This document shows, piece by piece, positions 1 to 58,943 of a stretch of 58,943 nucleotides of DNA. Source of the DNA: a virus (lineage: Duplodnaviria; Caudoviricetes); IMG/VR virus record IMGVR_UViG_3300028883_000054, positions 1 to 58,943 of that record, one strand, 5' to 3'. Both the position numbers and the translations under genes were made by a program. The notes under the pieces were generated by a model that did no database searches, had not been told where the DNA came from, and worked only from the letters and a program-made list of their open reading frames with translations. Positions within the stretch are counted from its first letter, which is position 1. Every line of letters begins with the position of its first letter.

Positions 1-149
1 AAATTGTTGGTACCACTTGGAAATTAACTATAACTACGAAAAAAGACAATAAAACTCATGTCGAATTTAGGGAGAATGAATCCGCAAAATTGGAAATATT
101 AATGTTTGCTACATCAAGAGGATTTTTCAAAAATTTAGAAGAATTATAA
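1..149 (+). CDS. 3' part of second copy of early gene 54879..55187 (5' part at 58926..58943)
   Basis: 1-152 matches 55039-55190 with one synonymous change (TTC/TTT); TAA at 147-149. Confidence 0.85.
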   Translation, partial: IVGTTWKLTITTKKDNKTHVEFRENESAKLEILMFATSRGFFKNLEEL

Positions 150-160
150 TAATTTAATTA

Positions 161-198
161 AAACCTATTGCCCCGTCATTAAGACGGGACATTAATAA
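161..198 (+). repeat. intergenic hairpin repeat, copy A
   Basis: TGCCCCGTC-ATTAA-GACGGGACA; second copy at 56861-56898. Confidence 0.75.
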
Positions 199-211
199 GA
201 AGAATTGTGTT

Positions 212-403
212 ATGTTAACAGAAAATCTTAAAATAGGTGATCAAGTACGAGATAAATATGGAAATATAGGGGAAGTTATAGAATTACATGGCAATCGTTA
301 TACACGATGCAATGTATTAATAAAAAGAGGGAATAACAGCACTAATGATAAAATAATTGTTAAACAACTATGGTATATAATCAGGACTTTAGAAATAATC
401 TAA
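212..403 (+). CDS. hypothetical protein (possible SH3/KOW-like barrel)
   Basis: LKIGDQV...GNIGEVIE pattern. Confidence 0.55.
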   Translation: MLTENLKIGDQVRDKYGNIGEVIELHGNRYTRCNVLIKRGNNSTNDKIIVKQLWYIIRTLEII

Positions 404-418
404 ATTAGGAGTAAAGTC

Positions 419-640
419 ATGGATACAAGATTAAATAGAATTCGAGATTATTTAATAGAAACAGAATTGTTTGGAAAATATAATCCTCGCCATATACTTG
501 CATGGATGTATTCAGAGAACAATACGCTTAATAACTTAACACAAATCGAGTTTACAAATGAAATTAAATTAGCATGCAAAACAATTTCTATAGCAGGCAT
601 TGAATTTTCTGAGGATTTAGCGCAAACATTTGGAATATAA
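419..640 (+). CDS. hypothetical phage protein
   Basis: ORF with AGGAG RBS. Confidence 0.7.
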   Translation: MDTRLNRIRDYLIETELFGKYNPRHILAWMYSENNTLNNLTQIEFTNEIKLACKTISIAGIEFSEDLAQTFGI

Positions 641-670
641 TTACCACAAATTTAAAACGAGGAGAAAGTC

Positions 671-1063
671 ATGAAAACACAAAAATTTAATTATCGAGTA
701 GATGCTGAAAACATTAAAACTTTTTACGTCGTTGCTGAAGATTTACAAGAAGCTCAGAAAGAAGCAGTTCGAGAAATTTATAACATCAATCCAAAGTTCA
801 ACTTCGAACAAGACGAACACACCGTTATCAGAGTCCAAAAGTATGAAATCGTAATTGACGGTGAAGTTATTGCAGGTAAAGAAATCGAATTTGACGATGC
901 TTATGAATTTGACGACTCACCTTCAATTAATGAATTCGAGAACGATATTAGAAAATATGTAGATGCTGAAGATTTTGAAAAATTTTATCAAGATTGCGAA
1001 GCAGACGAAGAAGGTTGGTATTGGGTAGGTTATTCACTCTCAATTGAAATTCGAAAAGCATAA
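671..1063 (+). CDS. acidic early protein; C-half paralogous to 58063..58344, N-part similar to 57557..57991
   Basis: shared KYE[IL]VIDG, INEFE.DI, [IV]EIR[KR]A motifs; GAGGAG RBS. Confidence 0.8.
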   Translation: MKTQKFNYRVDAENIKTFYVVAEDLQEAQKEAVREIYNINPKFNFEQDEHTVIRVQKYEIVIDGEVIAGKEIEFDDAYEFDDSPSINEFENDIRKYVDAEDFEKFYQDCEADEEGWYWVGYSLSIEIRKA

Positions 1064-1068
1064 ACATC

Positions 1069-1113
1069 CGGGCAACTGCGTAAGACGCCGTCGGTTCATG
1101 GTTGGGTTGCCCG
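1069..1113 (+). ncRNA. candidate three-way-junction RNA/ssDNA element, copy A
   Basis: CGGGCAAC/GTTGCCCG closing stem, GCG-TAAGA-CGC hairpin, GTTCA-loop hairpin; within a ~120 bp repeat (1046-1166 vs 58327-58447). Confidence 0.6.
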
Positions 1114-1160
1114 CAAAGATCTATTAAATAAGAATATTAAATAAAATCGAGGAGAAAGCC

Positions 1161-1391
1161 ATGGAACAAGCGAAAGAACCCAAGAAAGGATTTAAAGGGA
1201 TTAAGTTTTATTCATTGATACACGAGGGGAGTCGATTTTATACTCAAATGGCTTTTAGTTTTAATGACGACCCAGCGCCTCATGAATCTGTATTTATGTA
1301 TGCCTTAAAAGAAAAAGAATTTAAAGAAAAGCTTAATGGGTTAAGTTGGACCCAATATGCTATCAAGCATATCAATTTTAAGACATCTTAA
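1161..1391 (+). CDS. hypothetical protein
   Basis: ORF with GAGGAG RBS. Confidence 0.7.
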   Translation: MEQAKEPKKGFKGIKFYSLIHEGSRFYTQMAFSFNDDPAPHESVFMYALKEKEFKEKLNGLSWTQYAIKHINFKTS

Positions 1392-1452
1392 AATTGATAA
1401 ATAAAAGAGTAATTTTATGATAAATTTATTAAAAGAAATAAAGGAGTAAATT

Positions 1453-1728
1453 ATGAAACGAGGGAAAATAGCAATCGCAAACTTAGAAAAAAACAATTCT
1501 TTAACCCTATATGAGCCTTGTTGTTGTAGCGATAAGTCTCCGCAGACTCCGACAAGTCATTACCATGAGGCTATTGATATAAAGTTAAAGAATGGAAAAT
1601 ATTATTATAGAGTAGATTCAACAGCCTCCACGATGCTGCGTCTTCATGAACAAGAAGATTTCAAGGAAATATCAAAAGATGATTTAATTAGCCTTATAGA
1701 TAATGAATATAGGGATTATACGTTTTAA
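1453..1728 (+). CDS. hypothetical protein
   Basis: ORF with AAGGAG RBS. Confidence 0.7.
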   Translation: MKRGKIAIANLEKNNSLTLYEPCCCSDKSPQTPTSHYHEAIDIKLKNGKYYYRVDSTASTMLRLHEQEDFKEISKDDLISLIDNEYRDYTF

Positions 1729-1759
1729 ATTTCCTAACATCCAGCGGCGGGAGGAAAAA

Positions 1760-2314
1760 ATGATTAATGCTGAAAAATATGCAGGCTATTTAAGATATTA
1801 TAGTTTTACGACTTGGAAAGTTAATGTATTGACTTTTGAGGAGACCGTACAATTTGTATATCTTGCTTGGGTAGAATTAGGACAACCGAAGGACAAAGAA
1901 AATGAAATTAATTTTGATGTCCTTAATAAAACAAGAGAATATCTTTATAAATTTTCAAAACATTATCGTATTGAGAAATATTATAATGACAAGAAAGATT
2001 TTTCATCTTCTGATTCTGAAAATGATAAAATGCGCTTTGTAAAAATGATATTAAAGTTTTATGAAACGCATACGGCAACAGAAACAATTAAGTTTTTTAA
2101 TCTTAAGGATACACGAAAAATAAGAAAGACATTATCTGAACTTTTGCCGAAACCTCAGAGAAATTCCGGAAAAAAATTTGGAGAAAAAAGGAAGAAAATT
2201 AACACCAATGAAACATATAATCAATTAATTAAACGAGGTATCCCAAAAGCGACGGCATGGAGAGCGTCGCAAAGAGGATACTATTATAAAAAATGCGAGG
2301 AGAAATTATCATGA
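1760..2314 (+). CDS. basic hypothetical protein, possible C-terminal HTH
   Basis: start moved to ATG 1760 after GGGAGG; C-terminal LIKRGIPKATAWRA. Confidence 0.6.
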   Translation: MINAEKYAGYLRYYSFTTWKVNVLTFEETVQFVYLAWVELGQPKDKENEINFDVLNKTREYLYKFSKHYRIEKYYNDKKDFSSSDSENDKMRFVKMILKFYETHTATETIKFFNLKDTRKIRKTLSELLPKPQRNSGKKFGEKRKKINTNETYNQLIKRGIPKATAWRASQRGYYYKKCEEKLS

Positions 2315-2964
2315 GATATTGTATTCAATGCGGAGACGAAATTAAAGATACTGGACACTTAAAAGAAGTCCTTGGACTAAAAAACGATCCGAAATATTGT
2401 GAAAAGTGCAGGCGAAAAATTCGCGGATACAGGAATAAAAATACCGTTGAAAGAATAGAAATTAAAAGATGGGATAATTGTATTTTTAGGAACTTCCCAT
2501 TTAAACCCGAGAAGTCAACTAATGACGTATATGATATTTATTACATCGGAGGGCGTAATTGGGGAAATTGGGGAGGCGTTGAATTTAAGGAGAAATATCT
2601 AATTTTTATAAATAAAGGCCTCGATCCCGAGAAACCAGTAATGATTAGGAAAATGGAAAAAACTTGGAAGAAAATAAATACTGTTAATAATAAAGAAATT
2701 ATCACAACCGGGACAAATGAATATTTAACAATCGATCAAGCACAAGATACAGAGTTGCCTAAAAAAAATATTTATTATTTCTGTGATTATTATAAGACCA
2801 CCCTTAAAGGCAATGGTCGCGACAGGAATTTAAAGCATCAAGTTTCAGGAGAATATGATATTATTCTTAATGGAAATTCATCCTGTCGATCAGGCCGACA
2901 TGGGAATTCATGGGAATTAATAGTCGGCAAGAATCTCAAAATTACAGAAACAGGAATTTCTTGA
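2311..2964 (+). CDS. hypothetical protein with N-terminal Zn ribbon
   Basis: CxxC...CxxC; GAGGAG RBS before ATG 2311. Confidence 0.7.
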   Translation: MRYCIQCGDEIKDTGHLKEVLGLKNDPKYCEKCRRKIRGYRNKNTVERIEIKRWDNCIFRNFPFKPEKSTNDVYDIYYIGGRNWGNWGGVEFKEKYLIFINKGLDPEKPVMIRKMEKTWKKINTVNNKEIITTGTNEYLTIDQAQDTELPKKNIYYFCDYYKTTLKGNGRDRNLKHQVSGEYDIILNGNSSCRSGRHGNSWELIVGKNLKITETGIS

Positions 2965-3148
2965 TAGTTAATTATTATATCTTTATCAAACACAGTCTCA
3001 ATCCTTTAAATACCTAACCGGATTCTCGAAATAGCCCGCGCAGAAATCGAGGATCCGAGTTTAAAAAATATTTTTAATAATATAAACAGAATCCAATATC
3101 AAGAACGATTTTAATTAAAGCCTCTTGATGTATTGGGAAAGGATTAAA

Positions 3149-3358
3149 ATGCCAAAAAAACTCACGGAAAAAGTACAAAAACAGATAACCTTTTCAGTAA
3201 ATTTAAGCGTTATCGAAAGATTTCAAAATTTATATCCGGATTTAAACAATCCAGCATCATTTATCCAGCTGGTGAATGACTTTGAAAACGTTAAGGCTGA
3301 AAGAGATAGACTCTTAAATGAGCTTATTGAAATCGGCAAAATAGGAGCTGCGCAATGA
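3149..3358 (+). CDS. small hypothetical protein (possible ribbon-helix-helix plus coiled coil)
   Basis: QITFSV strand followed by helices; AAGGA RBS. Confidence 0.5.
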   Translation: MPKKLTEKVQKQITFSVNLSVIERFQNLYPDLNNPASFIQLVNDFENVKAERDRLLNELIEIGKIGAAQ

Positions 3359-4134
3359 AACCAATAAAGCAAATTACTGTTGAGAGTCTTTTCCAAGTTC
3401 GCAAAGATATTTTAAAGCGCTTGGAAAATATCAGACAGTTAGAAACTGAAATAAACCAAATTTGTGATTCGCATGGTCTGTCCACAAGTGCGGACAGATT
3501 ATTGAATCGAGGTCAATATCATCATCACTCAGAAAATGACCTTGATAAATCGCTATGGTATCTATTAGCTAATATATCAAATTTAAACGGAACTATGTCA
3601 AGAAAAGCAAGAAAGAAGTTTGATGATATGGTTGAGGGCAAAACACCTAAATTTGAACGTGAGAAGGTGTGTGAAATTACTCAAAATATTAAACAAATAT
3701 ATTCGGCCAATATCAATCAACTTCTTCACGAAGTTTACAGTAGCTTGATCGGCTGTTGTTACCATGGATCAAGCTGCAACCACAAAAGACATAATCTGAC
3801 AAAAGTCAACCAAAAATTTAGAATTTGGTACAGCCGTCACTTTGACTGGGCGCAGTTAGGGGATAGCGTGTTCCCTGACCTCTACAAATTATGTAAAATC
3901 CTGGATGGTAAAAATGAGTCCGCGAATTATGCGGACAGCCCTTTTAAAAATTATATAAAAAAGTTAGACCCTATTGAAACAGATTATTTTGATTTAAAGC
4001 TTTATAAAAACGGCAACGCCTTAGTCACGTTCAAGCGCTTGGACATCCTCCAAATAATCAATAAGTACGGAGGAGGAAACGCATTGCCGGATGTAATGGG
4101 GAAACGGTATAAACAAGAACATTTTAATTTATGA
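3355..4134 (+). CDS. DUF4942-like protein
   Basis: DLYKLCKILDGK and ETDYFDLKLYKNGNALVTFKRLD motifs. Confidence 0.7.
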   Translation: MKPIKQITVESLFQVRKDILKRLENIRQLETEINQICDSHGLSTSADRLLNRGQYHHHSENDLDKSLWYLLANISNLNGTMSRKARKKFDDMVEGKTPKFEREKVCEITQNIKQIYSANINQLLHEVYSSLIGCCYHGSSCNHKRHNLTKVNQKFRIWYSRHFDWAQLGDSVFPDLYKLCKILDGKNESANYADSPFKNYIKKLDPIETDYFDLKLYKNGNALVTFKRLDILQIINKYGGGNALPDVMGKRYKQEHFNL

Positions 4135-4145
4135 GGAGATATATA

Positions 4146-4466
4146 ATGGATTGTTTGTATAAGACAACTTACGAGGATAAAAAAATTTGGGGAGATTCTT
4201 TTTGTGGACCAACAAAATTTATTCACGGAAAAGAAACATTAATCTCGAGAATAATTAAAAGATCTCCAGATGGCCAGACTGTTGAGGTCTATTGTACTGC
4301 CATGCCGGCAAGATTTTACACAATAAAAGTTCTGGAAGGGGAAAAAAGCGTATATGCCTATAAAAAACAATTTGAATTTAGAACCGGATCGGGATATGGA
4401 ATGCAAGAACTTTCGAAATTAATAGCAAATGCCATTGCTGAAGGGATGCTTAATCTAACCAAATAA
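4146..4466 (+). CDS. hypothetical protein
   Basis: GAGGAG RBS before ATG 4146. Confidence 0.65.
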   Translation: MDCLYKTTYEDKKIWGDSFCGPTKFIHGKETLISRIIKRSPDGQTVEVYCTAMPARFYTIKVLEGEKSVYAYKKQFEFRTGSGYGMQELSKLIANAIAEGMLNLTK

Positions 4467-4512
4467 TTTTTTGATTTCTATATTATAGAATTTAATTTCC
4501 TGTTTTTTTCTC

Positions 4513-4541
4513 TTGACATTTATAATTATTATTATTATATT
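4513..4541 (+). promoter_or_regulatory. sigma70-type promoter for the replication/middle operon
   Basis: TTGACA-17-TATATT in an AT-rich gap. Confidence 0.75.
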
Positions 4542-4591
4542 TTATTATTATAAATACTTATTCATTTTATTAAATATTCAAGGATATTAAC

Positions 4592-4771
4592 ATGAAATCA
4601 AAAAAAAAGGTATTGCAAATCCAATTACCCGCTAAAGAATTGGATGTTCTCGATGGGATGGCGGAAAAGGTTTTCTTAAATAGGGCTTCTTTTGCAAGGA
4701 ATGTCTTATTAAAAACAATACAGACAATGCCAGAGTACAAGAAAGTCAAGGAAGAATTAGGTATTATTTAA
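4592..4771 (+). CDS. ribbon-helix-helix (CopG/Arc-like) regulator, 59 aa, below ORF-track cutoff
   Basis: MKSKKKVLQIQLPAKELDVLDGMAEKVFLNRASFARNVLL; first gene after promoter. Confidence 0.7.
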   Translation: MKSKKKVLQIQLPAKELDVLDGMAEKVFLNRASFARNVLLKTIQTMPEYKKVKEELGII

Positions 4772-4954
4772 TCTTTTATATATGGGAGGAAAAGTGTTAT
4801 CAAATATTGATCGAAAAATATATTCAAAGCTTTTCAGTCTTTATAGGAACGAGCATTATGATATAGTGAGTTCTATTAGACGAGCGGTAAGAGCAATCCA
4901 AGAAGCGAAAAGAAGGTCGGTAAGATAATATAAATAAAAGTTAGAGGGTTAGAA

Positions 4955-5140
4955 ATGATTTTTATATCAATCCTGATTTACTTCATTACGCACATACATA
5001 TATATATTATTGTCGCGTCTGTATGTGCAATGTTCCTGCCATTTCTTCTTATTGGCAGTCTCGTCTTTTTTTGGCGGTTTGGTGGATATACCTATGTCGC
5101 CGTAAAGAATGATGAGTTTAAAAAGGATCAATTTAAATAA
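4955..5140 (+). CDS. small membrane protein
   Basis: long hydrophobic stretch. Confidence 0.5.
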   Translation: MIFISILIYFITHIHIYIIVASVCAMFLPFLLIGSLVFFWRFGGYTYVAVKNDEFKKDQFK

Positions 5141-5167
5141 TTTATAAAAAATCAAAACGAGGGAAAT

Positions 5168-6502
5168 ATGACAAATAATGATTATATGGAAGTCTATCAG
5201 GTCGGGGGAGTCCAAGAGGTAGACGAGAGAAACCTGCCTCAAGAAAGCAGGTCTGATCATGGTTCTGCTGTAATACAAACAGACTCGACGCCTTCATTTG
5301 CTGAGCTTTATAATGGCATTGCGAAAGATGCTTTCTCAAGAAAAGTAACGGATATTTTAACTGCTAATATAGATCCTTTGACAGTTGAAATTAAGCCTGA
5401 TGGTTTGATTTATTTGCCTGAAATCAAGTATAGGCAAATTCTAAATGAAGCTTTTGGGGTTGGAGCCTACTCGTTTCTAATTCGGGATAAAAAATCAGAA
5501 ACGATTTCCGGGAAACAAATCAGAGTGCACATCAACCTTATAATGTACATTGAGGGGCGTTACCACTCTGAAGCATGGGGAGCGGCTGATTACTGGCAAA
5601 ATAATTCAAACAGCGATTATTCAACCGCATTTGAAAGCGCGAAAAGCGTTGCAATCCGGAGATGTTGTAAAGATCTTGGGATCGCCTCGGAGTTATGGGA
5701 TCCTCAATTTATTCGAAAGTGGAAAAAAGAATTTAGTATTAAAGTCTTTTGTGATAATCAAAAAACCGGAGAAACGAGAGTCCTTTGGCGACGAAAAGAT
5801 GTTGATCCGTTTGATTATCCATGGAGAGAACGGAGTAACGGATTAAATCAACACAAACCGAAGAATCAACAAAATCCTCGACAGGAACCTCAACAAAATA
5901 CTACTATTCAGTCACAGAAATCAAGTAAAAATTTACCAGTAGTAAAAGGCCGGAAAATCAGTTTTGAGTCTGATGGCGAAAAAGTCTCCGGTTATTGGAA
6001 TGGGAAAACATATCCATCCAATAAAAACGATTATCGAATTTATATCGGTCAAAAACAATATCACATCGATAAAAATCTTTTAACCGAAATAAGTAAGGAT
6101 CCAGAGTCACTACCAAAAGAGGAAAATAAAAAACAACAACCTATGCCCGATAAGGACTCACCAGAATATTTTAGAAATAAAATTCGAAATTTCTTAAAGC
6201 CTATGGTACTTTCGGAATTTATTGATCAAAGTTATTATGACTCGATTGATCAATTAATTTCAAAGATTAATGACATTGACGAATTAAAAAAACAGATCCT
6301 CAACGTTAATAATCAGATGGTAAGTAGAGCCCGCTCGCATACGACAGCTCTACTCACTAATTATCACGATCAAGGATCTATTCGTGATCCATTATACAAA
6401 AAATATTGCGTTGAGTTAGAAGAAGCCAATACATTAGATATCATTAGGGGAATATTGGGCGATATGACCGCCGAGGTAAATCGTATAAAAGAGCGAGGAT
6501 AA
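5168..6502 (+). CDS. Rad52/Rad22-family single-strand annealing protein, Mgm101-like
   Basis: EIKPDGLIYLPEIKYRQILNEAFG and RCCKDLGIASELWDPQFI match the Mgm101 core as I recall it. Confidence 0.85.
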   Translation: MTNNDYMEVYQVGGVQEVDERNLPQESRSDHGSAVIQTDSTPSFAELYNGIAKDAFSRKVTDILTANIDPLTVEIKPDGLIYLPEIKYRQILNEAFGVGAYSFLIRDKKSETISGKQIRVHINLIMYIEGRYHSEAWGAADYWQNNSNSDYSTAFESAKSVAIRRCCKDLGIASELWDPQFIRKWKKEFSIKVFCDNQKTGETRVLWRRKDVDPFDYPWRERSNGLNQHKPKNQQNPRQEPQQNTTIQSQKSSKNLPVVKGRKISFESDGEKVSGYWNGKTYPSNKNDYRIYIGQKQYHIDKNLLTEISKDPESLPKEENKKQQPMPDKDSPEYFRNKIRNFLKPMVLSEFIDQSYYDSIDQLISKINDIDELKKQILNVNNQMVSRARSHTTALLTNYHDQGSIRDPLYKKYCVELEEANTLDIIRGILGDMTAEVNRIKERG

Positions 6503-8957: not shown

Positions 8958-9866
8958 ATGAAATATCAACTGAATATCAATCAAAAGGCGTGGCAGAAAC
9001 ATTTTCCTGATGCGAATCTTAATCACGCGGTTATTTTAGATACGATACAAACGATGTGTACAATCCAGGGACCAGGATTGTTAAAAGACGAACAAGGGTT
9101 CACATTTATTTCTCTCAACCTCATAATTAAAGAAATACCTATGATGAGTATCAATTGCAAATCCGGAGTTTCAAAATATATACAAGATTTACAAAATTGG
9201 GGATTAATTGATACAAAAATTAACAAACGAAATCAATACATCAAGGTGACTGCAAAATATCATAAAATATTTGTCACAAATTATAATCAAGGTCAAGAAC
9301 GAGGTGTTCACTCAGATGAACAAGGTGTTCACTCAGATGAACAAGGTGTTCACTGTGGTGAACGAGGTGTTCACTCAGATGAACAAGGTGTTCACTGTGG
9401 TGAACGAGGTGTTCACTCAGATGAACCTATAAGTAATACTAATATAAGTAATACTACTATAAGTAATGTCGATGAATCAAAAAAAACAAGAACTTTAAAA
9501 TCTGATAAAATAAATCCAGTTAAGGAAGGAGAAACTGTAGGAACGAAACGTCCGTCCAGGATAAGTATCTTTAGGAAGAAATATGAAGATAACTTCTTAG
9601 ATAAATATTCGGAGCCTTATAATTGGGGCAATTTTGCTAAATCAGGACAACAGATTAAAAATCTTTATTCTTTCCTTGATAAAATATACGATTATAATAC
9701 TTCGGTTGAAATTATGGATAAGTGTATAGAAATATTTTTTAATAAACCAGACAGATGGGCAGAGGATGAGAAGCACCCTCTTTATATATTTATTAACAAA
9801 TTTAACAAACTTCATATTGAGTGTAAAAGTTCAGATGATAGAGTTTTGCTATTTAACGTAAATTAG
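8958..9866 (+). CDS. phage replication initiator (lambda O/DnaD-like organisation)
   Basis: N-terminal winged-HTH-like segment, central iteron-encoded repeats, upstream of DnaC-like ATPase. Confidence 0.8.
   Translation: MKYQLNINQKAWQKHFPDANLNHAVILDTIQTMCTIQGPGLLKDEQGFTFISLNLIIKEIPMMSINCKSGVSKYIQDLQNWGLIDTKINKRNQYIKVTAKYHKIFVTNYNQGQERGVHSDEQGVHSDEQGVHCGERGVHSDEQGVHCGERGVHSDEPISNTNISNTTISNVDESKKTRTLKSDKINPVKEGETVGTKRPSRISIFRKKYEDNFLDKYSEPYNWGNFAKSGQQIKNLYSFLDKIYDYNTSVEIMDKCIEIFFNKPDRWAEDEKHPLYIFINKFNKLHIECKSSDDRVLLFNVN
9297..9426 (+). repeat. six 21-bp tandem iterons (likely replication origin)
   Basis: GAAC(G/A)AGGTGTTCACT(CAGAT/GTGGT) x6; TGAAC-N5-GTTCA palindromes. Confidence 0.85.
9428..9467 (+). 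repeat. AT-rich 15-bp repeats (candidate unwinding element)
   Basis: TATAAGTAATACTA(A/C) x2 plus partial copy, adjacent to iterons. Confidence 0.7.
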
Positions 9867-15737: not shown

Positions 15738-15797
15738 TCTCCGGGCGGGCAATTAAATTAACAGTCAAACATAAATGGTTTCACGCTTGCCCGGAGA
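15738..15797 (+). other. GC-rich 13-bp intergenic stem with 34-nt loop
   Basis: TCTCCGGGCGGGC...GCTTGCCCGGAGA. Confidence 0.6.
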
Positions 15798-15817: not shown

Positions 15818-16045
15818 ATGGAAATAACCGAATTTTATAAACTCCAATTCAGATATTATGATAAAGGTGGCTGGTATGATGATCCTGTTATCTTGCCAGA
15901 TAACTTTTATATTTTGATCGATAAAATTAAACAAGATAAGAGGATAAAAAAAGGTATTGAAATGGGCATTGTCTATAGAATAATTAAAGTCGAAATAACA
16001 GAGACAATAATTCATTATATTCATAAAGGTTCAGACTTAGCATAA
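15818..16045 (+). CDS. hypothetical protein
   Basis: AGGAG RBS. Confidence 0.6.
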   Translation: MEITEFYKLQFRYYDKGGWYDDPVILPDNFYILIDKIKQDKRIKKGIEMGIVYRIIKVEITETIIHYIHKGSDLA

Positions 16046-23644: not shown

Positions 23645-23762
23645 TGAACGACTGAAAGCGTGAATGCGTCGTAGGTCGTGTTCCTTATAAAGTTAAAAAT
23701 CTTATTTGGTGGTATAAGCGGAATAAAAAGGCGACCAGAGTAAATCATGGCCGCCTTTTTTT
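23645..23762 (+). ncRNA. candidate small RNA (~118 nt)
   Basis: promoter, two hairpins and terminator; the first ATG reads M-N-D-stop. Confidence 0.5.
23725..23762. terminator. bidirectional intrinsic terminator between the two arms
   Basis: AAAAA-GGCGACCA-loop-TGGCCGCC-TTTTTTT. Confidence 0.8.
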
Positions 23763-23784
23763 GGTGAGGAGAGAGGGCTAATTT

Positions 23785-52467: not shown

Positions 52468-52487
52468 TTGTCTCTCCTCGTAATTTG

Positions 52488-52559
52488 TAGCGGGAGAGGG
52501 ATTTGAACCCTCGACCTTCAGGTTATGAGCCTGCTGAGCTACCGCTGCTCCATCCCGCG
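52488..52559 (-). tRNA. tRNA-fMet (CAU), CCA not encoded
   Basis: CGCGGGA-TG-GAGC-AGCGGTA-GCTC-A-GCAGG-CTCATAA-CCTGA-AGGTC-GAGGG-TTCAAAT-CCCTC-TCCCGCT-A; C1:U72 mismatch. Confidence 0.92.
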
Positions 52560-53494: not shown

Positions 53495-54413
53495 TCGACA
53501 CCTCTATCTTTACGCCCGTTGGTATTGCCGGCGGGATAATATCCTTTTCTTCTTGCGGTTCTGTTGCGCTCTCATCTATTTGAAATATTCGAGGATTGCT
53601 TGTATTGCAAACGCCCCACTGATCTATCATCCAAAAATATAATAAATAATGCCCTGTATTGCTGGGGACACTTGTGAGATCTTGTTCAAAAATAACACCC
53701 TGATAATCGTAATAATCCCTGAAGGTTTCGGCTTCAGTCATAACACGACCGCCGCCTTCTGAATATATTGGATGGTTTCCATGGCTTTCAATGCACCAAA
53801 GAAACAATCCTTTTTGGAGATCCTGAAACCCGTTTGGATCATAAGATCGATCCGTTCTAAATTTAACCGTTTTACTATTTATTATATATGGATCTCCGTA
53901 TTTACCCGCCCCACTTACAACATTGAGAATGTCAATAACTTCAACCGGTTTTTGATTATTTGCCGGTGGTGTGTAAGGTTGTGTATAGTTATTGATGGGA
54001 GGAGTCTCAACGTAGACGTGCATATAGTATTTTTCAAAATCTTGGATGTAATATCCAGATCCTGGATTTATATCTACACGAATATAAAACCAACCGGGAA
54101 GGTTAACGGTATGAGAGAACGGGTACTTAACCGCCTGATTATACGAAAGATCTTTTACTTCATACATAATTGAACAATTACGGTTCCCGTCCATGTGCAT
54201 ATTTGGGTAATAGAGACAATCCTCTTTATTTTCGCCACTAATATCAAGTTTAAAATCGATCCTGTTTGTATGTAGTACATACGGATCGCCATACGTTCCC
54301 GATCCTCTGGCGATGGGAGACATAATTATTACACGTGCCTCGACTCCAAATATACTTGAAATAGAAATTGATACCAAAATTAAAGCAATAAATAATATTT
54401 TAATATTTTTCAT
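53481..54413 (-). CDS. secreted protein with two Ig/PKD-like repeats
   Basis: signal peptide; GSGTYGDPY / GAGKYGDPY; SYDPNG; DIIPPAIPTG. Confidence 0.7.
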   Translation of the reverse strand: MKNIKILFIALILVSISISSIFGVEARVIIMSPIARGSGTYGDPYVLHTNRIDFKLDISGENKEDCLYYPNMHMDGNRNCSIMYEVKDLSYNQAVKYPFSHTVNLPGWFYIRVDINPGSGYYIQDFEKYYMHVYVETPPINNYTQPYTPPANNQKPVEVIDILNVVSGAGKYGDPYIINSKTVKFRTDRSYDPNGFQDLQKGLFLWCIESHGNHPIYSEGGGRVMTEAETFRDYYDYQGVIFEQDLTSVPSNTGHYLLYFWMIDQWGVCNTSNPRIFQIDESATEPQEEKDIIPPAIPTGVKIEVSNGAL

Positions 54414-54429
54414 TTAAAAAATCCTTGCC

Positions 54430-54466
54430 AAAATAAAAATGACCAGGGACGGGGGACCCTGGCCAT
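54430..54466 (-). terminator. intrinsic terminator at end of late leader
   Basis: ATGGCCAGGG-loop-CCCTGGTCAT-TTTTATTTT on - strand. Confidence 0.7.
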
Positions 54467-54635
54467 TGTACGAGGAAAAAATGTTTTTAAAACCACAAAG
54501 AGAACTATGACGATAAGAGGGATAATATAATGAATTGTCGTTGTAATCTCTGTATGCGCTACCTGTTCTCATTACATTACCCTTTGAGTTGCACAACAAG
54601 GAGTAAGTCAGTTCAAAAAGCATTATCGTCCATGC

Positions 54636-54664
54636 AATATAAAAAATAACTTTCATTAAGTCAA
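54636..54664 (-). promoter_or_regulatory. promoter of the leftward (late) arm
   Basis: TTGACT-17-TATATT on - strand. Confidence 0.75.
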
Positions 54665-54773
54665 GAATATTTATGTTTTATTTAAATTATTTTTTGCCTG
54701 CAAACCTGTCAAACTCTTTATATTTTTATATTTATTATACTTATGTCGTATTATTTATTTTACTGTTTTATAT

Positions 54774-54881
54774 ATTTTTTTTTATTTTTTTTTATTTTTT
54801 GCTTGACTTTTTCAAATAAAATGTTTATATTAATAATAGATAAAGGGAATAATAAAACAAACCAAACGAGGTGAAAAAATG
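54774..54881 (+). promoter_or_regulatory. early promoter/RBS repeat, copy 1
   Basis: phased AT9 tracts, TTGACT(54803)-17-TATATT(54826), CGAGGTG RBS. Confidence 0.88.
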
Positions 54882-55187
54882 AAAACATCAAAATTTCAGA
54901 TAGCAGACGCTTTAAGTTCTAAGATGGTTGACGTAACTGCTTGGAATGTTAAATATTTAGAACATGCTAAAAAAGCAATATTTGAAAATGATGAAAAAAT
55001 CATGACAATAGAAGAAATAAAATTAAAGGTTGAAAATGAAATTGTTGGTACCACTTGGAAATTAACTATAACTACGAAAAAAGACAATAAAACTCATGTC
55101 GAATTTAGGGAGAATGAATCCGCAAAATTGGAAATATTAATGTTTGCTACATCAAGAGGATTTTTTAAAAATTTAGAAGAATTATAA
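54879..55187 (+). CDS. first early gene, hypothetical (duplicated)
   Basis: ORF after promoter; second copy spans the window ends. Confidence 0.8.
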   Translation: MKTSKFQIADALSSKMVDVTAWNVKYLEHAKKAIFENDEKIMTIEEIKLKVENEIVGTTWKLTITTKKDNKTHVEFRENESAKLEILMFATSRGFFKNLEEL

Positions 55188-55223
55188 TAACTTAATCAAG
55201 ACCTATAAACGAGGAGATACAAA

Positions 55224-55397
55224 ATGAAGACAATGACATTCACAAAGAGAGAATTAGACATGTTAAGAAGAGCGACATTTTCATTCATGGCTAGTGATGA
55301 TAGCGAAAAGTTTCAAAATGATGAAATGAATGAAATGTTTAAGAGGTTGACTAAGGCATTTAACGAAACAGAAGAAAATTCAAGCGAAGCAGCCTAA
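55224..55397 (+). CDS. 57-aa early protein ([LF]T..E...L family), not in ORF track
   Basis: GAGGAG RBS; MKTMTFTKRELDMLRRA...; TAA lies in hammerhead stem I. Confidence 0.7.
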   Translation: MKTMTFTKRELDMLRRATFSFMASDDSEKFQNDEMNEMFKRLTKAFNETEENSSEAA

Positions 55398-55443
55398 CTG
55401 ATGAGCTTTCAATAAGCGAAACTCCCTGCGGGGAGTCTTAGGC
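55392..55443 (+). ncRNA. hammerhead ribozyme, type I
   Basis: GCCTAA-CTGATGA-GCTT(TCAAT)AAGC-GAAA-CTCCC(TGCG)GGGAG-TC-TTAGGC; predicted cut after C55437. Confidence 0.93.
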
Positions 55444-55468
55444 AATTAAACAAAACGAGGAGAAAGCC

Positions 55469-55660
55469 ATGAAAACGATTAAAAATAAAGAAGAATTAGA
55501 ACACGAAGCATGGAGAATAATTCTAATTATAACAGATAACTCAATACGCGGTAGTTTACCAACGGAGGGAGAAGTTAGAAGTCTTGTAATAGAAATAAAA
55601 AAATGGAATAAATGTTATAAAGATATATCTGCAGACAATATAATTAAAAATTATTTATAA
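55469..55660 (+). CDS. small early protein
   Basis: GAGGAG RBS. Confidence 0.7.
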   Translation: MKTIKNKEELEHEAWRIILIITDNSIRGSLPTEGEVRSLVIEIKKWNKCYKDISADNIIKNYL

Positions 55661-55678
55661 GTCTAACTGATGAGCTTT
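55661..55678 (+). repeat. hammerhead 5'-half repeat
   Basis: GTCTAACTGATGAGCTTT; 16-nt identity to 55394-55409. Confidence 0.8.
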
Positions 55679-55703
55679 TAATTAAACCAAACGAGGTAAA
55701 AAA

Positions 55704-55889
55704 ATGAAAGAGAATAATTACAATTTAACAGTTGAAGAAGCTAAGGTTTTAAAGTCTGTCTTGTTAGATAAAGCGTTGAAACTTACTTATAGATGTAAAT
55801 CTTTATTAAGTCCTGATCAATTAACAGAATTGGATATTATGAATAAACAAATAGATAAATTAAGTAAATTAATTAAATCTTTTAAATAG
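55704..55889 (+). CDS. small early protein ([LF]T..E...L family)
   Basis: LTVEEAKVLKSVLLDK. Confidence 0.7.
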   Translation: MKENNYNLTVEEAKVLKSVLLDKALKLTYRCKSLLSPDQLTELDIMNKQIDKLSKLIKSFK

Positions 55890-55901
55890 AAGGAAAATAA
55901 A

Positions 55902-56132
55902 ATGGAAAATTTAAAAAATCAAGAAAATAAAGATCGAATTCCTTTAATTTTTACAGTAAAAGAAATTGAAATTTTAAAATCAATATTAATTGATAAAGTA
56001 AACGATCTCGAGTGGTTAAATCGTCCTTTATTTTTATCGGAAAAAATGCAAAAAGAATTCATCAATAAAACAATAGAAGAGATAGAACTTATAAAATCGA
56101 TTTTAATTAATACGGAAACAGATATTAAATAA
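55902..56132 (+). CDS. small early protein ([LF]T..E...L family)
   Basis: FTVKEIEILKSILIDK. Confidence 0.7.
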   Translation: MENLKNQENKDRIPLIFTVKEIEILKSILIDKVNDLEWLNRPLFLSEKMQKEFINKTIEEIELIKSILINTETDIK

Positions 56133-56156
56133 ATAATATAAAACGAGGAGAATAAA

Positions 56157-56660
56157 ATGGAGAACTATTTTAAAACCTGTGAAACCGTTGCTGATGTTAA
56201 AAAACTTTATAGAGAACTCGCGAAAGAAAATCATCCAGATCATGGCGGATCTACTCGAACAATGCAAATCATTAATGATTTGTATCATGCAAAATTAAGA
56301 AAACTGGATGGTCAAACTTCAATCGGGACAGATAAGAAAAAACATCAATATCATTATAATCACGTTGTCGAACAAGAGTTAATTGATAAAATTAACGAAT
56401 TGCTAAAAATTAAAATGATTGATGTTGAGATGGAATTAATAGGGACGTGGCTATGGGTTAAAGGAGATACGAAAAAATACAGAAAAGAATTTAAAAAATT
56501 AAAATTATGCTGGCATCCCAAGCGAAATGCTTGGTACTATCGCAAATATGATTATCGCCGAAAAATGAGCAATTTGAGCTTTGATCAATTGCGTCAGATG
56601 TACGGTTCTAAAGATATTGATCAAGAAGAGAAACAGATGAAAAAAGCTTTAAAAAAATAA
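56157..56660 (+). CDS. J-domain (DnaJ-like) protein
   Basis: VKK.YR.LA...HPD.GG....MQ.IN..Y; ELIGTWLWV.G.T C-domain. Confidence 0.85.
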   Translation: MENYFKTCETVADVKKLYRELAKENHPDHGGSTRTMQIINDLYHAKLRKLDGQTSIGTDKKKHQYHYNHVVEQELIDKINELLKIKMIDVEMELIGTWLWVKGDTKKYRKEFKKLKLCWHPKRNAWYYRKYDYRRKMSNLSFDQLRQMYGSKDIDQEEKQMKKALKK

Positions 56661-56673
56661 GCGAGGTGAAAAG

Positions 56674-56853
56674 ATGAAAACGTATAAAATTGAATTAACA
56701 GAAGTTGAAGCCGCTGTCATTAAAAATGTGCTGCAAAATACAGAGCACGATTTAGATAAATGGACAGAACCTGATGATGAAGATCTTTTAATGATTAAAG
56801 TCTGTAATAATGTTTCAAAAAAGATTTATAATACTTTCTGGGGAAAAAACTAA
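56674..56853 (+). CDS. 59-aa early protein ([LF]T..E...L family), not in ORF track
   Basis: GAGGTG RBS; MKTYKIELTEVEAAVIKNVL. Confidence 0.7.
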   Translation: MKTYKIELTEVEAAVIKNVLQNTEHDLDKWTEPDDEDLLMIKVCNNVSKKIYNTFWGKN

Positions 56854-56860
56854 CTACCAT

Positions 56861-56898
56861 AAACCTAATGCCCCGTCATTAAGGCGAGGCACTAATAA
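56861..56898 (+). repeat. intergenic hairpin repeat, copy B
   Basis: TGCCCCGTC-ATTAA-GGCGAGGCA; matches 161-198. Confidence 0.75.
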
Positions 56899-56912
56899 AC
56901 GAGGAGAAAATT

Positions 56913-57440
56913 ATGGCAACTTATAAAGAATCAATAAATAATTTAAGCGATTTAGTTAAATCGCCTCAATCTAAAATTAAAGATGCGCTTAGTGACGGTT
57001 TTTATATTAAAAATAGATGGATAGAAACAGTATTTAAGCGAGTTCCGGATAGCTTAAATTTAAGTCGGAAATATTCTCAAAGTGATGAGATAATAAATGA
57101 TTTTAAATTCCTTGCCGACTTACCGATTGAACATTTCTACGTTTTCTATCTTACCACTCGATTAGAAGTTTTAGGACTTCAATTAGCGGGAATTGGTTCA
57201 GTATTAGGAACAGAAATTGATATTCGAAATGTAACTTATAACGCCATACAATTAGGAAGCACTGCTGTTATTTTCCTTCATAATCATCCAAGCGGAGATT
57301 CTGAACCATCAAAGCCCGATAAAATTATTACAAATAAATTTAAAGCTATTTTTGAATTATTTGGAATAACTTTGGTTGACCATATAATTATTGCTTATAA
57401 TAATTATTATTCATTTGCGGATAATCGTTTAATTACATAA
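56913..57440 (+). CDS. radC: RadC-family JAB domain protein
   Basis: E.F....L, HNHPSGD..PS..D, LVDHIII, YYSF. Confidence 0.9.
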   Translation: MATYKESINNLSDLVKSPQSKIKDALSDGFYIKNRWIETVFKRVPDSLNLSRKYSQSDEIINDFKFLADLPIEHFYVFYLTTRLEVLGLQLAGIGSVLGTEIDIRNVTYNAIQLGSTAVIFLHNHPSGDSEPSKPDKIITNKFKAIFELFGITLVDHIIIAYNNYYSFADNRLIT

Positions 57441-57450
57441 TATTTTCTTT

Positions 57451-57559
57451 ATTTTTTTTTATTTTTTTTTATTTTTTGCTTGACTTTTTCAAATAAAATG
57501 TTTATATTAATAATAGATAAAGGGAATAATAAAAACAAACCAAACGAGGTGAAAAAATG
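57451..57559 (+). promoter_or_regulatory. early promoter/RBS repeat, copy 2
   Basis: TTGACT(57480)-17-TATATT(57503); near-identical to copy 1. Confidence 0.88.
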
Positions 57560-57991
57560 AAAAATTTATATGAAATAAGAACTAGCAGACATAATTTCAG
57601 AATATTATCTAATAACCTACAAGAAGCTGAAGAACAAGCTATTGAAATTATTAAAGTTAATGACCACAATCCTAATTTTTGCGGAAAGAATATGATCGTT
57701 CATCAAATTGAGAATGATACTAATTCAAAAATTTTTCAAGAAGCTTATTATAATGAATTTTTAGCATTTTTAAATAATATCGCAGGCGAAAAACTGGAAG
57801 TTATTGTTTTTGAAATTAATTATTTAGTTGTAAATATTAAGGTTTTAGGATCGGAATTAGGTACATTAAGACTTTTTAAAAATTATTCAACCCTTACTAC
57901 TCGCGATGGAATAGATCAAGGAAAATCACCTGTAACAGGACAATTTTATTTTCAACTGCAATTTGTTGAAAAAGAAGAAAATTTCAAATAG
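57557..57991 (+). CDS. hypothetical early protein
   Basis: ORF after promoter; LQEA...A..I...NP.F shared with 671..1063. Confidence 0.75.
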   Translation: MKNLYEIRTSRHNFRILSNNLQEAEEQAIEIIKVNDHNPNFCGKNMIVHQIENDTNSKIFQEAYYNEFLAFLNNIAGEKLEVIVFEINYLVVNIKVLGSELGTLRLFKNYSTLTTRDGIDQGKSPVTGQFYFQLQFVEKEENFK

Positions 57992-58008
57992 ATAAAAACC
58001 TGAATTAA

Positions 58009-58034
58009 TCGAGACTCCTCGGAGGGAGTCTCGA
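58009..58034 (+). repeat. hairpin derived from hammerhead 3' half
   Basis: TCGAGACTCCT-CGGA-GGGAGTCTCGA; flank matches 55418-55466. Confidence 0.65.
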
Positions 58035-58062
58035 GCAAATTAACCAAAACGAGGAGAAAGTT

Positions 58063-58344
58063 ATGATAATGTCATACAAAAGAGGATACCAAATAAAACC
58101 TAATAAAATAAACGAAAAGAAAATCATAAAAAGAAAGTATGAATTAGTAATTGACGGAAAAATCATCTGTGCTGATAATGTATATCATTATCAAGCTATT
58201 AATGAATTTGAATGGGATATTAAAGCATTTTTTTCACCTATGAATAAAACAGAATTTGAAAACTTATACAACGACTTTCAATCAGATGGAAATGGATGGA
58301 CCGCGGTGTATTTCGACCATATCGTCGAAATTCGCAGAGCGTAA
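58063..58344 (+). CDS. early protein, paralog of 671..1063
   Basis: KYELVIDG, INEFE.DI, VEIRRA. Confidence 0.75.
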   Translation: MIMSYKRGYQIKPNKINEKKIIKRKYELVIDGKIICADNVYHYQAINEFEWDIKAFFSPMNKTEFENLYNDFQSDGNGWTAVYFDHIVEIRRA

Positions 58345-58349
58345 GCACC

Positions 58350-58394
58350 CGGGCAACTGCGTAAGACGCCGTCGGTTCGCGGCCGGGTTGCCCG
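58350..58394 (+). ncRNA. candidate three-way-junction element, copy B
   Basis: same fold as 1069-1113 with GTTCG loop. Confidence 0.6.
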
Positions 58395-58441
58395 CAAAGA
58401 TCTATTAAATAAGAATATTAAATAAAATCGAGGAAAAAGCC

Positions 58442-58807
58442 ATGGAAACAAAAGATCAAAACAGAGCTATAATAATTAATATGATATCTTTTAATGCGAG
58501 AAAAAATCGGTATGTCTGTAAACACTGCGGCAAAAGCTATAAGACAGGGACGGGTTGCTTTAATCATATTAAAAATAATCATATGGATCTTGTCGTTAAT
58601 GTTAGACATCAAATGATTACAAAGGAACATGGATTAGAATCCGACGATGTACGACATAGAGAACCTAAAATAAATCAATACATGATCTCAGGCGAAAGAT
58701 TTAATTTATACTTTGCAGGAAAAGAAAGTAAAGAAGCATTTAAACAGGTTATAACCGAATTAGAGGAAATGATTAAGAAAAGTGAAGTAAAAATTAGAAA
58801 AGTATAA
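58442..58807 (+). CDS. C2H2-type Zn-finger protein
   Basis: YVCKHCGKSY.......HI...H. Confidence 0.7.
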   Translation: METKDQNRAIIINMISFNARKNRYVCKHCGKSYKTGTGCFNHIKNNHMDLVVNVRHQMITKEHGLESDDVRHREPKINQYMISGERFNLYFAGKESKEAFKQVITELEEMIKKSEVKIRKV

Positions 58808-58820
58808 ACTTATGTGGTTT

Positions 58821-58928
58821 ATTTTTTTTTATTTTTTTTTATTTTTTGCTTGACTTTTTCAAATAAAATGTTTATATTAATAATAGATAAAGGGAATAAT
58901 AAAACAAACCAAACGAGGTGAAAAAATG
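58821..58928 (+). promoter_or_regulatory. early promoter/RBS repeat, copy 3
   Basis: TTGACT(58850)-17-TATATT(58873); followed by ATG AAA ACA TCA AAA TTT as in copy 1. Confidence 0.88.
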
Positions 58929-58943
58929 AAAACATCAAAATTT

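Follow-up and report, generated by a model that had tools for sequence, protein, structure and literature searches.

A duplicated GC-rich stem-loop in the early operons of an uncultured phage, a candidate mRNA processing or stability signal within a shuffled intergenic cassette

The window considered here (the whole stretch of DNA that was analysed, a 58,943-bp virus record that IMG/VR lists as linear, with a completeness estimate of 79%) carries two copies of a GC-rich stem-loop element, which we read, with a probability of roughly one-half, as an intercistronic mRNA processing or stability signal that is part of a shuffled regulatory cassette. We infer its action as RNA, and the nuclease mechanism behind it, from a set of observed features: its position and strand, its stability, the lack of a U-tract, the equivalent hairpins and the hammerhead found nearby, and three precedents from other systems. 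The element matches no known family, yet it is ordinary in kind.

The window as a whole has a GC content of 34.7%. Its large terminase is 54% identical to the counterpart in Geobacillus phage GBK2, with further relatives found mostly in phages of Firmicutes and Fusobacteria, and a Mgm101-type annealing protein is also encoded. A single tRNA gene, for tRNA-Met, is present at positions 52487 to 52559; it was reported by ARAGORN and, as the same gene only, by the Rfam tRNA model. Genes on the + strand run from ~54.8 kb to the contig end and from position 1 to ~23.7 kb, and terminators with a U-tract mark the ends of strand blocks (23716 to 23765 and, on the - strand, 54467 to 54438).

A duplicated cassette in probably consecutive early transcription units

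Two 45-nt copies of the element had been reported by an earlier, sequence-only reading of this DNA, and both are found exactly where that reading placed them (Table 1). From copy 1 to copy 2, the element differs at positions 30, 31, 34, and 35 (A>G, T>C, T>C, and T>C, respectively), all of these being transitions. The 22-nt 5' part of the element occurs exactly twice in the window, against 0 occurrences expected on the basis of 100 shuffles, and no other 45-mers of the early region are as rich in GC as the two copies (0.64 and 0.73). The actual unit of repetition, however, is wider than the 45 nt initially proposed: the duplication (family D5) takes in the full cassettes listed in Table 1 and thereby reaches through the spacer and ribosome-binding site to codon 2 of the next gene (the shared ATGGAA). 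Broken down by part, identity between the cassettes is 15/18 for the last six codons plus stop, 3/5 for the 5-nt linker, 41/45 for the element, 46/47 for the spacer plus Shine-Dalgarno (SD) site (an AT-rich stretch of 47 nt that includes the SD site GAGGAG), and 6/6 for ATGGAA.

Beyond ATGGAA, identity between the two loci falls to 19/53, and their upstream coding DNA is 42 to 51% identical in register. Across the cassette, the block from 1068 to 1166 contains 5 differences in 99 nt (~95% identity), where unrelated 100-mers from the early region average ~30% identity, with a maximum of 47/100 in 2000 draws; the two copies are alike far beyond chance. The conserved unit is the cassette, and the hairpin is its least conserved part. 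Since the cassette is ~95% identical, with upstream proteins sharing 35% identity and downstream proteins being unrelated, the pattern suggests that an intergenic module was recently copied or underwent gene conversion. The four differences within the element are clustered (P = 0.003 for at least 4 differences within 6 nt, in the 100-nt block from 1068 to 1167 with its 6 differences), a pattern that a single local event could explain, as could relaxed constraint at sites that tolerate wobble pairing. Among the runs listed as containing the sequence, two are DNA runs and none is an RNA run. An additional variant, G>A at 58386 (element position 37), was present in 2 contigs from one DNA run, at a depth of 28 of 63.5, with its locus or strain of origin being ambiguous.

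Table 1. Positions of the element, the cassette around it, and the neighbouring genes, promoters, and third stem in the window
Feature	Position	Strand	Remarks
Upstream ORFan gene of copy 1, 130 aa	671..1063	+	Paralogue of 58063-58344
Full cassette, copy 1	1046..1166	+	Last 6 codons plus stop of paralogue, 5 nt, element, spacer, ATG
GC-rich stem-loop element, copy 1, 64% GC	1069..1113	+	9-bp closing stem (positions 1-9 with 37-45), 27-nt interior
Downstream gene of copy 1, 76 aa	1161..1391	+	Unrelated to downstream gene of copy 2
Third intergenic stem, arms CGGGCAA...TTGCCCG, AT-rich 34-nt interior	15738..15797	+	Covariance model 13.3 bits, E = 0.47
Sigma-70-like early promoter, TTGACT-17-TATATT	57480..57508	+	Heads transcription unit with copy 2
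Upstream ORFan gene of copy 2, 93 aa	58063..58344	+	Paralogue of 671-1063
Full cassette, copy 2	58327..58447	+	Family D5; 92% identity to copy 1 over 121 nt
GC-rich stem-loop element, copy 2, 73% GC	58350..58394	+	Four positions unlike copy 1
Downstream gene of copy 2, 121 aa	58442..58807	+	Weak zinc-finger-like matches below cut-off
Sigma-70-like early promoter	58850..58878	+	Probably heads unit with copy 1, crossing contig end into 1-1391

That the copies directly follow the stop codons of paralogous genes, as described earlier, was confirmed: each begins 5 nt past a TAA, and the paralogues share 35% identity (E = 6e-14). Neither of these upstream paralogues belongs to a family above threshold in Pfam or PHROGs; the protein encoded at 671 to 1063 retrieved nothing but itself among 5.8 billion proteins, and the ESM Atlas gave nothing usable for it. 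The downstream proteins of the two copies showed no mutual alignment at E ≤ 100, and querying IMG/VR with the flanking proteins, and likewise with the Mgm101-like protein, returned 0 relatives.

The element is positioned intercistronically, between + strand genes and downstream of early promoters. These promoters belong to a sigma-70-like cassette (TTGACT-17-TATATT, behind a T-rich tract) that is found, near-identically, at 54803, 57480, and 58850 (family D2). The final 124 nt of the contig are the same as 54773 to 54896 (D2), the first 168 nt match 55039 to 55206 at 98% (D3), and depth over 54856 to 55159 is ~2 times that of the neighbourhood in both DNA runs. On the basis of these end repeats and the doubled depth, the contig ends are very probably adjacent, with ~140 nt of a collapsed paralogous gene between them, in which case the two copies of the element would lie ~1.7 kb apart in consecutive early transcription units.

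Fold of the element and searches for relatives

The sequence-only reading had pictured a three-way junction, consisting of a closing stem (CGGGCAAC/GTTGCCCG), a GCG-TAAGA-CGC hairpin, and a hairpin with a GTTCR loop. The closing stem is indeed present, with pair probabilities of 0.81 to 1.0 in both copies, and a U9-G37 pair can lengthen it from 8 to 9 bp. The junction as a whole is not favoured: at -11.0 kcal/mol for copy 1 and -18.0 kcal/mol for copy 2 (-12.4 and -19.4 kcal/mol, respectively, when the 9-37 pair is included), it is outdone by a single bent hairpin with the 9-bp stem (-16.7 and -21.7 kcal/mol), which is better by 2.3 to 4.3 kcal/mol. The two inner hairpins can be drawn, with 15/15 pairs being standard in both copies, but they are thermodynamically minor, their pairs having probabilities of 0.09 to 0.23 for the GCG/CGC hairpin and 0.00 to 0.07 for the GTTCR hairpin. 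The bent hairpin comprises, from its base, 9 bp, a 1-nt bulge, 2 bp, a 6-nt one-sided loop (UAAGAC), 5 bp, and a hexaloop (CGGUUC). Its upper stem has a pair probability of 0.30 to 0.35 in copy 1 and 0.50 to 0.74 in copy 2, and the interior of copy 1 is ambiguous, with several states within 1 kcal/mol. On the mRNA, folding energies would most likely favour a hairpin closed by the 9-bp GC-rich stem, with an interior that is bent or partly open.

The structure had also been considered preserved between the copies. In the three-way junction, this applies to two differences, both G-U/G-C toggles, with the other two being unpaired; in the bent hairpin, 4/4 differences fall in pairs and keep pairing (G-U/G-C three times and U-A/U-G once). 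The G>A variant at 58386 is likewise pair-keeping (U9-G37 to U9-A37). Preservation does not, however, extend to compensatory pairs, of which there are 0: with two sequences only, two-sided changes number 0 in either model and one-sided changes number 2 (three-way junction) and 4 (bent hairpin), and compensatory pairs in the bent hairpin number 0/16; with two sequences, the shuffle control (500/500) is uninformative. As for stability, the minimum free energies (MFEs) of the copies in 50-nt segments, -22.4 and -17.7 (the latter for copy 1), compare to a + strand mean of -5.3 (standard deviation, 3.5), and copy 2 represents the second most stable 50-nt segment on the + strand of the entire window. 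Against dinucleotide shuffles of the 45-mer, z was -1.2 and -1.6, and 21 and 13 of the 200 shuffles, respectively, folded equally well; with flanks included, z was +0.9 and +0.6. In short, stability is an outlier relative to the genome but unremarkable relative to shuffles of the 45-mer itself.

The motif had been called unrecognised, and it found no match in Rfam 15 (cmscan, 4227 families). At the element, no family reached its gathering score in a scan of the whole window, and none reached E ≤ 10 in scans of the 7.8-kb early region or of 121 nt around each copy; the sole match in one of the 121-nt scans was a 9-bit chance match to the ribosome-binding-site region. A T-loop consists of five nucleotides, of which the first, a U, forms a reverse-Hoogsteen pair with the fifth, an A, and in the T-loop of tRNA, the sequence UUCRA is found inside a 7-nt loop closed by G-C. 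The supposed T-loop of the element does not bear this out: the letters are G26 U27 U28 C29 R30 Y31, the fifth position after U27 is a U or C rather than an A, and the three-way-junction model pairs the fifth T-loop position with G25 and leaves a loop of 5 nt, not 7. Additionally, no tRNA-like gene was found at the element by ARAGORN, the Rfam tRNA model, or Rfam at E ≤ 10. The suggestion of a small ribozyme found no support either: the core letters of the hammerhead (CUGAUGA, GAAA, and the cleavage triplet) are in neither copy, and no ribozyme family matched at E ≤ 10. On one further point, the earlier description was accurate, in that neither copy is followed by a U-tract (3' flank, CAAAGATCTATT); the terminator scans list neither copy. 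Canonical hairpin-plus-T-run terminators do exist elsewhere in the window, and the element, lacking a U-tract, is therefore not of the phage's usual terminator type.

Searches for homologues of the element extended well beyond the window. A 131-nt blastn query had no match in 50,697 GenBank phage records, and an exact 29-mer had 0 matches in IMG/VR. A degenerate core gave 3 matches in IMG/VR, all in GC-rich, coding-like sequence without the closing stem; similarly, a core pattern with 20 specified bases gave 2 matches in JGI metagenomes, on near-identical GC-rich contigs without the stem, and a 21-base pattern gave 0 matches in GTDB genomes. A pattern of the arms plus the first hairpin, with free loops, returned 37 genome matches and 1 viral match, which we judged to be due to chance (52 to 76% GC, unrelated interiors). 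Within the window, a covariance model built on the two copies found only those copies, plus a weak match at 15746 to 15793; it found none at E ≤ 10 in 80 terminase-relative loci (1.19 Mb; the closest of these terminase relatives are 64% and 59% identical) and nothing in 3 whole virus records of 57 to 65 kb. The outcome is that these searches yielded no homologues, which amounts neither to a known family nor to absent covariation among homologues.

Several other identities were considered and rejected. A small riboswitch, preQ1-type or other, was rejected since there was no Rfam match, and a promoter in the spacer was rejected since no sigma-70-like site is present in 1064 to 1160 or 58345 to 58441. 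For an integron attC-like site (with AAC...GTT arms), the arms misfit RYYYAAC/GTTRRRY, and the third intergenic stem (Table 1) lacks AAC/GTT; the element is, moreover, shorter than attC sites are known to be. An extension of the upstream gene by stop-codon read-through was rejected, for although the frame is open for 27 codons past the TAA, the differences are not coding-like. Mutagenesis of the diversity-generating-retroelement type was rejected because the changes are not adenine-specific. In connection with a spacer promoter, the sequence TATTAAATAA exceeds the AT-rich background only slightly (53 matches against 38 ± 6, with 1/100 shuffles scoring as high), and its sites showed no placement pattern.

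Neighbouring cassettes and the role of the element

The pattern GGGCAA-N20-45-TTGCCC, which describes the arms of the element, has 3 matches in the window against 0.05 expected. The third of these, at 15738 to 15797, is an intergenic stem of 13 bp (z = -5.3). We rejected homology of the element to this stem, as the alignment shows the arm letters alone and the interior is unrelated; kinship between the two is possible.

A hammerhead had been noted previously in an equivalent intergenic position, at 55392 to 55445. With 16.8 bits, against an HH9 gathering score of 52, it is absent at gathering thresholds, but its core and stems are canonical: stem I (GCCUAA/UUAGGC), CUGAUGA, stem II, GAAA, and stem III, with GUC before the cut, make up a type I core of textbook form. 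All three stems recur in the MFE fold, and the site follows a stop codon. Other GC-rich hairpins lacking a U-tract are found directly after stop codons at 169 to 191, 56869 to 56891, and 58009 to 58033. According to the alignment, the last of these (the 58.0-kb hairpin), together with its spacer and ribosome-binding site, is homologous to the 3' half of the hammerhead cassette, from stem III onward, so that a plain hairpin replaces the self-cleaver in an equivalent gap. The gap at 55663 to 55690 retains only the 5' half of that cassette (CTAACTGATGAGCTTT). Repeated modules in the early region further include the promoter cassette D2 (3 copies), the ribosome-binding-site modules D4 and D6 (7 and 5 copies, respectively), and D10, a CCCGTC-ATTAA-GACGGG hairpin (2 copies).

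The early operons, then, are assembled from repeated intergenic modules, and the truncated hammerhead derivatives, along with the shared modules, indicate that cassettes in this region were duplicated, truncated, and exchanged. On this one contig, a hammerhead cassette occurs together with two derivatives of it that are half-deleted and with a hairpin cassette unrelated to it, which suggests that a plain hairpin and a self-cleaver may be able to stand in for each other functionally at cassette joints. We consider this cassette system, with its minimal hammerhead and decayed copies, to be of greater interest than the element alone.

Under the reading as a processing or stability signal, the element would be the structured core of a cassette of ~100 to 120 nt, made up of a gene 3' end, stop codon, stem-loop, AU-rich spacer, SD site, and ATG. 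Recombination between two sites in early operons of this uncultured tailed phage, transcribed by the host RNA polymerase (RNAP), may have copied the cassette or homogenised its copies, and recombination or gene conversion between cassettes might also maintain the copies. Tentatively, the hairpin could form a barrier to 3'-to-5' exonucleases that, after cleavage in the AU-rich spacer, would fix the 3' end and the stability of the message of the upstream paralogue. A less probable route is that the hairpin itself would be cut by a double-strand-specific enzyme of the RNase III type. Either way, neighbouring cistrons would be uncoupled. Processing had been among the roles first suggested; as processing of polycistronic early mRNA, it is plausible, with a hammerhead and two remnants in equivalent gaps, but in the form of a tRNA-elbow mimic it did not hold up.

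The processing reading is favoured by the placement of each copy, 5 nt past a stop codon and 47 nt before the next start in a + strand operon, and by the fact that all four differences, as well as the 58386 variant, keep pairing in the favoured fold. Substrates of RNase III, on the other hand, usually contain roughly two helical turns of mostly double-stranded RNA, and the 16 interrupted pairs of the hairpin (9+2+5) may fall below that. The fold being unexceptional among its own shuffles, without homologues or compensatory pairs, also speaks against processing, as does the conservation of the spacer (46/47), which exceeds that of the hairpin (41/45) and fits recent copying over selection on structure.

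The same difference in conservation between spacer plus ribosome-binding site and hairpin would be expected of a passenger, carried along in a tract of recombination or gene conversion, or of a relic of a small palindromic DNA element, with no RNA function of its own. This is the rival that fares best, although we regard it as unlikely. The stretch of high identity ends precisely at codon 2 of both downstream genes, which are unrelated, and repeated modules and half-deleted hammerhead cassettes make the region a mosaic. The clustering of the four differences could stem from one local mutational event, and the third site has the arm letters alone in common with the element. However, a palindrome-closed island of 64 to 73% GC would hardly be expected to last without use in a window of ~35% GC, and the strand of the element agrees with that of five further hairpins that follow stop codons in these operons. 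All observed variants keep pairing, there is no target-site duplication, and no further copy was present in any collection searched.

An operator for an RNA-binding protein seems improbable. Such a protein might be the product of the upstream paralogue itself or a phage translational repressor or endonuclease that would read the invariant, unpaired letters UAAGAC and CGGUUC. The gene preceding the element is always from a single ORFan paralogue family, whereas the gene following it varies, and the arm letters of the element recur at the third intergenic site, but no RNA-binding domain was detected in the paralogues, and the SD site, 47 nt from the element, is not occluded. Variable sites are never at unpaired positions of the favoured fold; five such sites would, however, miss the 13 unpaired positions by chance in ~18% of cases ((32/45)^5).

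We give still less credence to control of transcription, whether the element would act as a non-canonical, U-tract-less terminator or attenuator or as a processive antitermination signal for the host RNAP. A stable GC-rich stem in the nascent early transcript, and the position of copy 2 before the final gene of its unit, would be in line with such a role. However, the element lacks the T-run of the canonical terminators of the window, lies mid-operon directly before a gene with a strong SD site, and matches no Rfam cis-regulatory family. Antitermination, which was among the initial suggestions, is not supported either: the terminator scans found no + strand terminator-like site in 1 to 5200 or 54400 to 58943 that would have to be overcome.

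New ribozyme classes have turned up near hammerheads, and a hammerhead with a canonical core lies 3 kb away in an equivalent gap. This precedent, the invariance of junction and loop letters between the copies, and the fact that the three-way junction can be drawn with 15 standard pairs are the points in favour of a compact three-way-junction RNA that would fill the niche of its hammerhead neighbour, either as a new small ribozyme that cleaves itself or, by mimicking the tRNA elbow, as a target of RNase P or RNase Z. We nevertheless hold this to be highly unlikely. The junction is 2.3 to 4.3 kcal/mol worse than the bent hairpin (hairpin probabilities ≤0.23), the A that defines a T-loop is missing, neither ARAGORN nor the Rfam tRNA models report anything at the element, ribozyme families give no match at E ≤ 10, and there are no homologues to reveal conserved catalytic letters. 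There is only a slim chance that the element represents a new catalytic or nuclease-guiding RNA of ~45 nt that would cut early polycistronic mRNA, interchangeably, in the cassette system of this phage, with the minimal hammerhead of a neighbouring gap, using the invariant, unpaired UAAGAC and CGGUUC as active site or recognition surface. Confined as it is to one uncultured marine-sediment phage, the element is of small wider significance unless catalytic.

Comparison with known systems

The REP hairpins between malE and malF and the hairpins of the puf operon are barriers to 3' exonucleases that bring about differential stability of cistrons. Like the element, they form stable GC-rich structures past a stop codon within an operon and do not function as terminators; unlike it, they are host elements with measured effects, whereas the element is phage-specific, has two copies, and is known from sequence alone. 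The R-sites of phage T7 and the sites of Bacillus phage SP82 are irregular intercistronic stem-loops with an internal loop and no U-tract. The element resembles such RNase III sites in being an irregular intercistronic stem-loop with an internal loop, in lacking a U-tract, and in recurring with similar sequence at several junctions of the early transcripts that the host RNAP produces, but differs from them in having only 16 pairs, broken by a 1-nt bulge and a 6-nt one-sided loop. For SP82, RNase III sites in early mRNA go back to Panganiban and Whiteley (1983), as cited in PMC4838370.

Hammerheads located near phage and prophage genes have been proposed, in Perreault et al. (2011, PMC3088659) and PMC6765202, to cut long transcripts into gene-length mRNAs. 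Like these hammerheads, the element occupies an intergenic gap directly after a stop codon in a phage operon; unlike hammerheads, it has neither the core (CUGAUGA, GAAA, and the cleavage triplet) nor a match to an Rfam ribozyme.

The cassette as a whole can be compared to the PeSL (promoter-early stem-loop) cassettes of T4-type phages, which are reportedly also dealt with by Comeau et al. in 2014. According to Arbiol et al. (2010, PMC2839356), PeSL cassettes combine a strong sigma-70 promoter with a stem-loop that is an effective terminator. The cassette described here differs in that it has no internal promoter-like site or U-tract and in that what stays constant in it is the spacer together with the ribosome-binding site. 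What it has in common with the PeSL cassettes is that both are short, repeated, intergenic regulatory cassettes with a stem-loop, located between small ORFan genes in a plastic early region. In both, furthermore, copies recombine and shuffle the neighbouring genes, with a paralogous upstream gene here being joined to two unrelated downstream genes. If the reading as a processing or stability signal is correct, this phage would provide another case of early operons built from interchangeable cassettes (hairpin or ribozyme, spacer, and ribosome-binding site), and such cassettes would both set mRNA ends and double as recombination joints for ORFan genes.

Contig ends and the early promoter cassette

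An internal promoter-plus-gene unit (54773-55206) is repeated at both contig ends, at 58820-58943 (100% identical) and at 1-168 (98%), and in both DNA runs this unit has approximately twice the contig depth. Since the ends repeat an internal unit at which depth is about doubled, the window record probably represents a circle or a permuted genome rather than a 79% fragment, with the break lying in a collapsed paralogue of ~140 nt. The promoter part of the unit is one of three copies of a cassette in which a T-rich tract is followed by TTGACT-17-TATATT and then by a conserved ribosome-binding site (RBS) module, AAACCAAACGAGGTGAAAAAATGAAA.

Features located in the window
Feature	Position	Strand	Basis or remark
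Minimal type I hammerhead-like ribozyme (predicted)	55392-55445	+	core letters and minimum free energy stems
Decayed hammerhead-cassette derivative, 5' half only	55663-55690	+	alignment
Decayed hammerhead-cassette derivative, stem III half	58005-58035	+	alignment
124-nt early promoter cassette, three copies	54773-54896, 57450-57573, 58820-58943	+	
Second duplicated post-stop hairpin module, CCCGTC-ATTAA-GACGGG	161-198, 56861-56898	+	
Intergenic 13-bp GC-rich stem, AT-rich loop of ~37 nt	15738-15797	+	z=-5.3
J-domain-like protein and RadC/JAB-like protein, early operon	56157-56660 and 56913-57440	+	
Mgm101-family single-strand annealing protein	5168-6502	+	Pfam PF06420, E=8e-53
Tandem 21-nt repeats (six to eight), GAACAAGGTGTTCACTCAGAT	9276-9443	+	inside ORF 8958-9866

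A hammerhead-like site and its derivatives

Overlapping the stop codon of the gene at 55225-55397, the hammerhead-like site carries the canonical core (CUGAUGA, GAAA and GUC), and its three stems were recovered by the minimum free energy fold. Rfam gave no match to this site at gathering thresholds, the score for the hammerhead family model HH9 being only 16.8 bits versus a gathering score of 52. As judged from an alignment, two further sites are decayed derivatives of the hammerhead cassette: in one, the 5' half alone remains (CTAACTGATGAGCTTT), joined to the RBS module, and in the other, the stem III half is retained and lengthened to a hairpin of 11 bp, and the spacer and RBS are those of the cassette.

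Other hairpins and variation in the element

The two copies of the CCCGTC-ATTAA-GACGGG module are 87% identical, and the differences between them in the 3' arm re-pair in part; a terminator scan found the module to be terminator-like on the minus strand only. The 13-bp stem, directly 5' of the gene at 15818, has its arm letters, CGGGCAA/TTGCCCG, in common with the 45-nt duplicated stem-loop (the element). At 58386, a position of element copy 2, a G>A population variant was carried by two contigs of run X2, from marine-sediment DNA (depth, 28 of 63.5), and was not seen in the other DNA run. A second X2 contig shows the letters of copy 1 at just two of the sites, 58379 and 58380, and may be a chimeric haplotype or a short contig.

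Coding genes

A 7-residue protein repeat is encoded by the 21-nt tandem repeats. The Mgm101-family protein, whose C-terminal half is long and of low complexity, had no tblastn match among 50,697 GenBank phage records. In the early operon, an HPD motif can be read by eye in the translation of the J-domain-like protein, the PHROG matches of which are function-unknown entries, and the RadC/JAB-like protein matches phrog_10276, annotated as "DNA repair protein."
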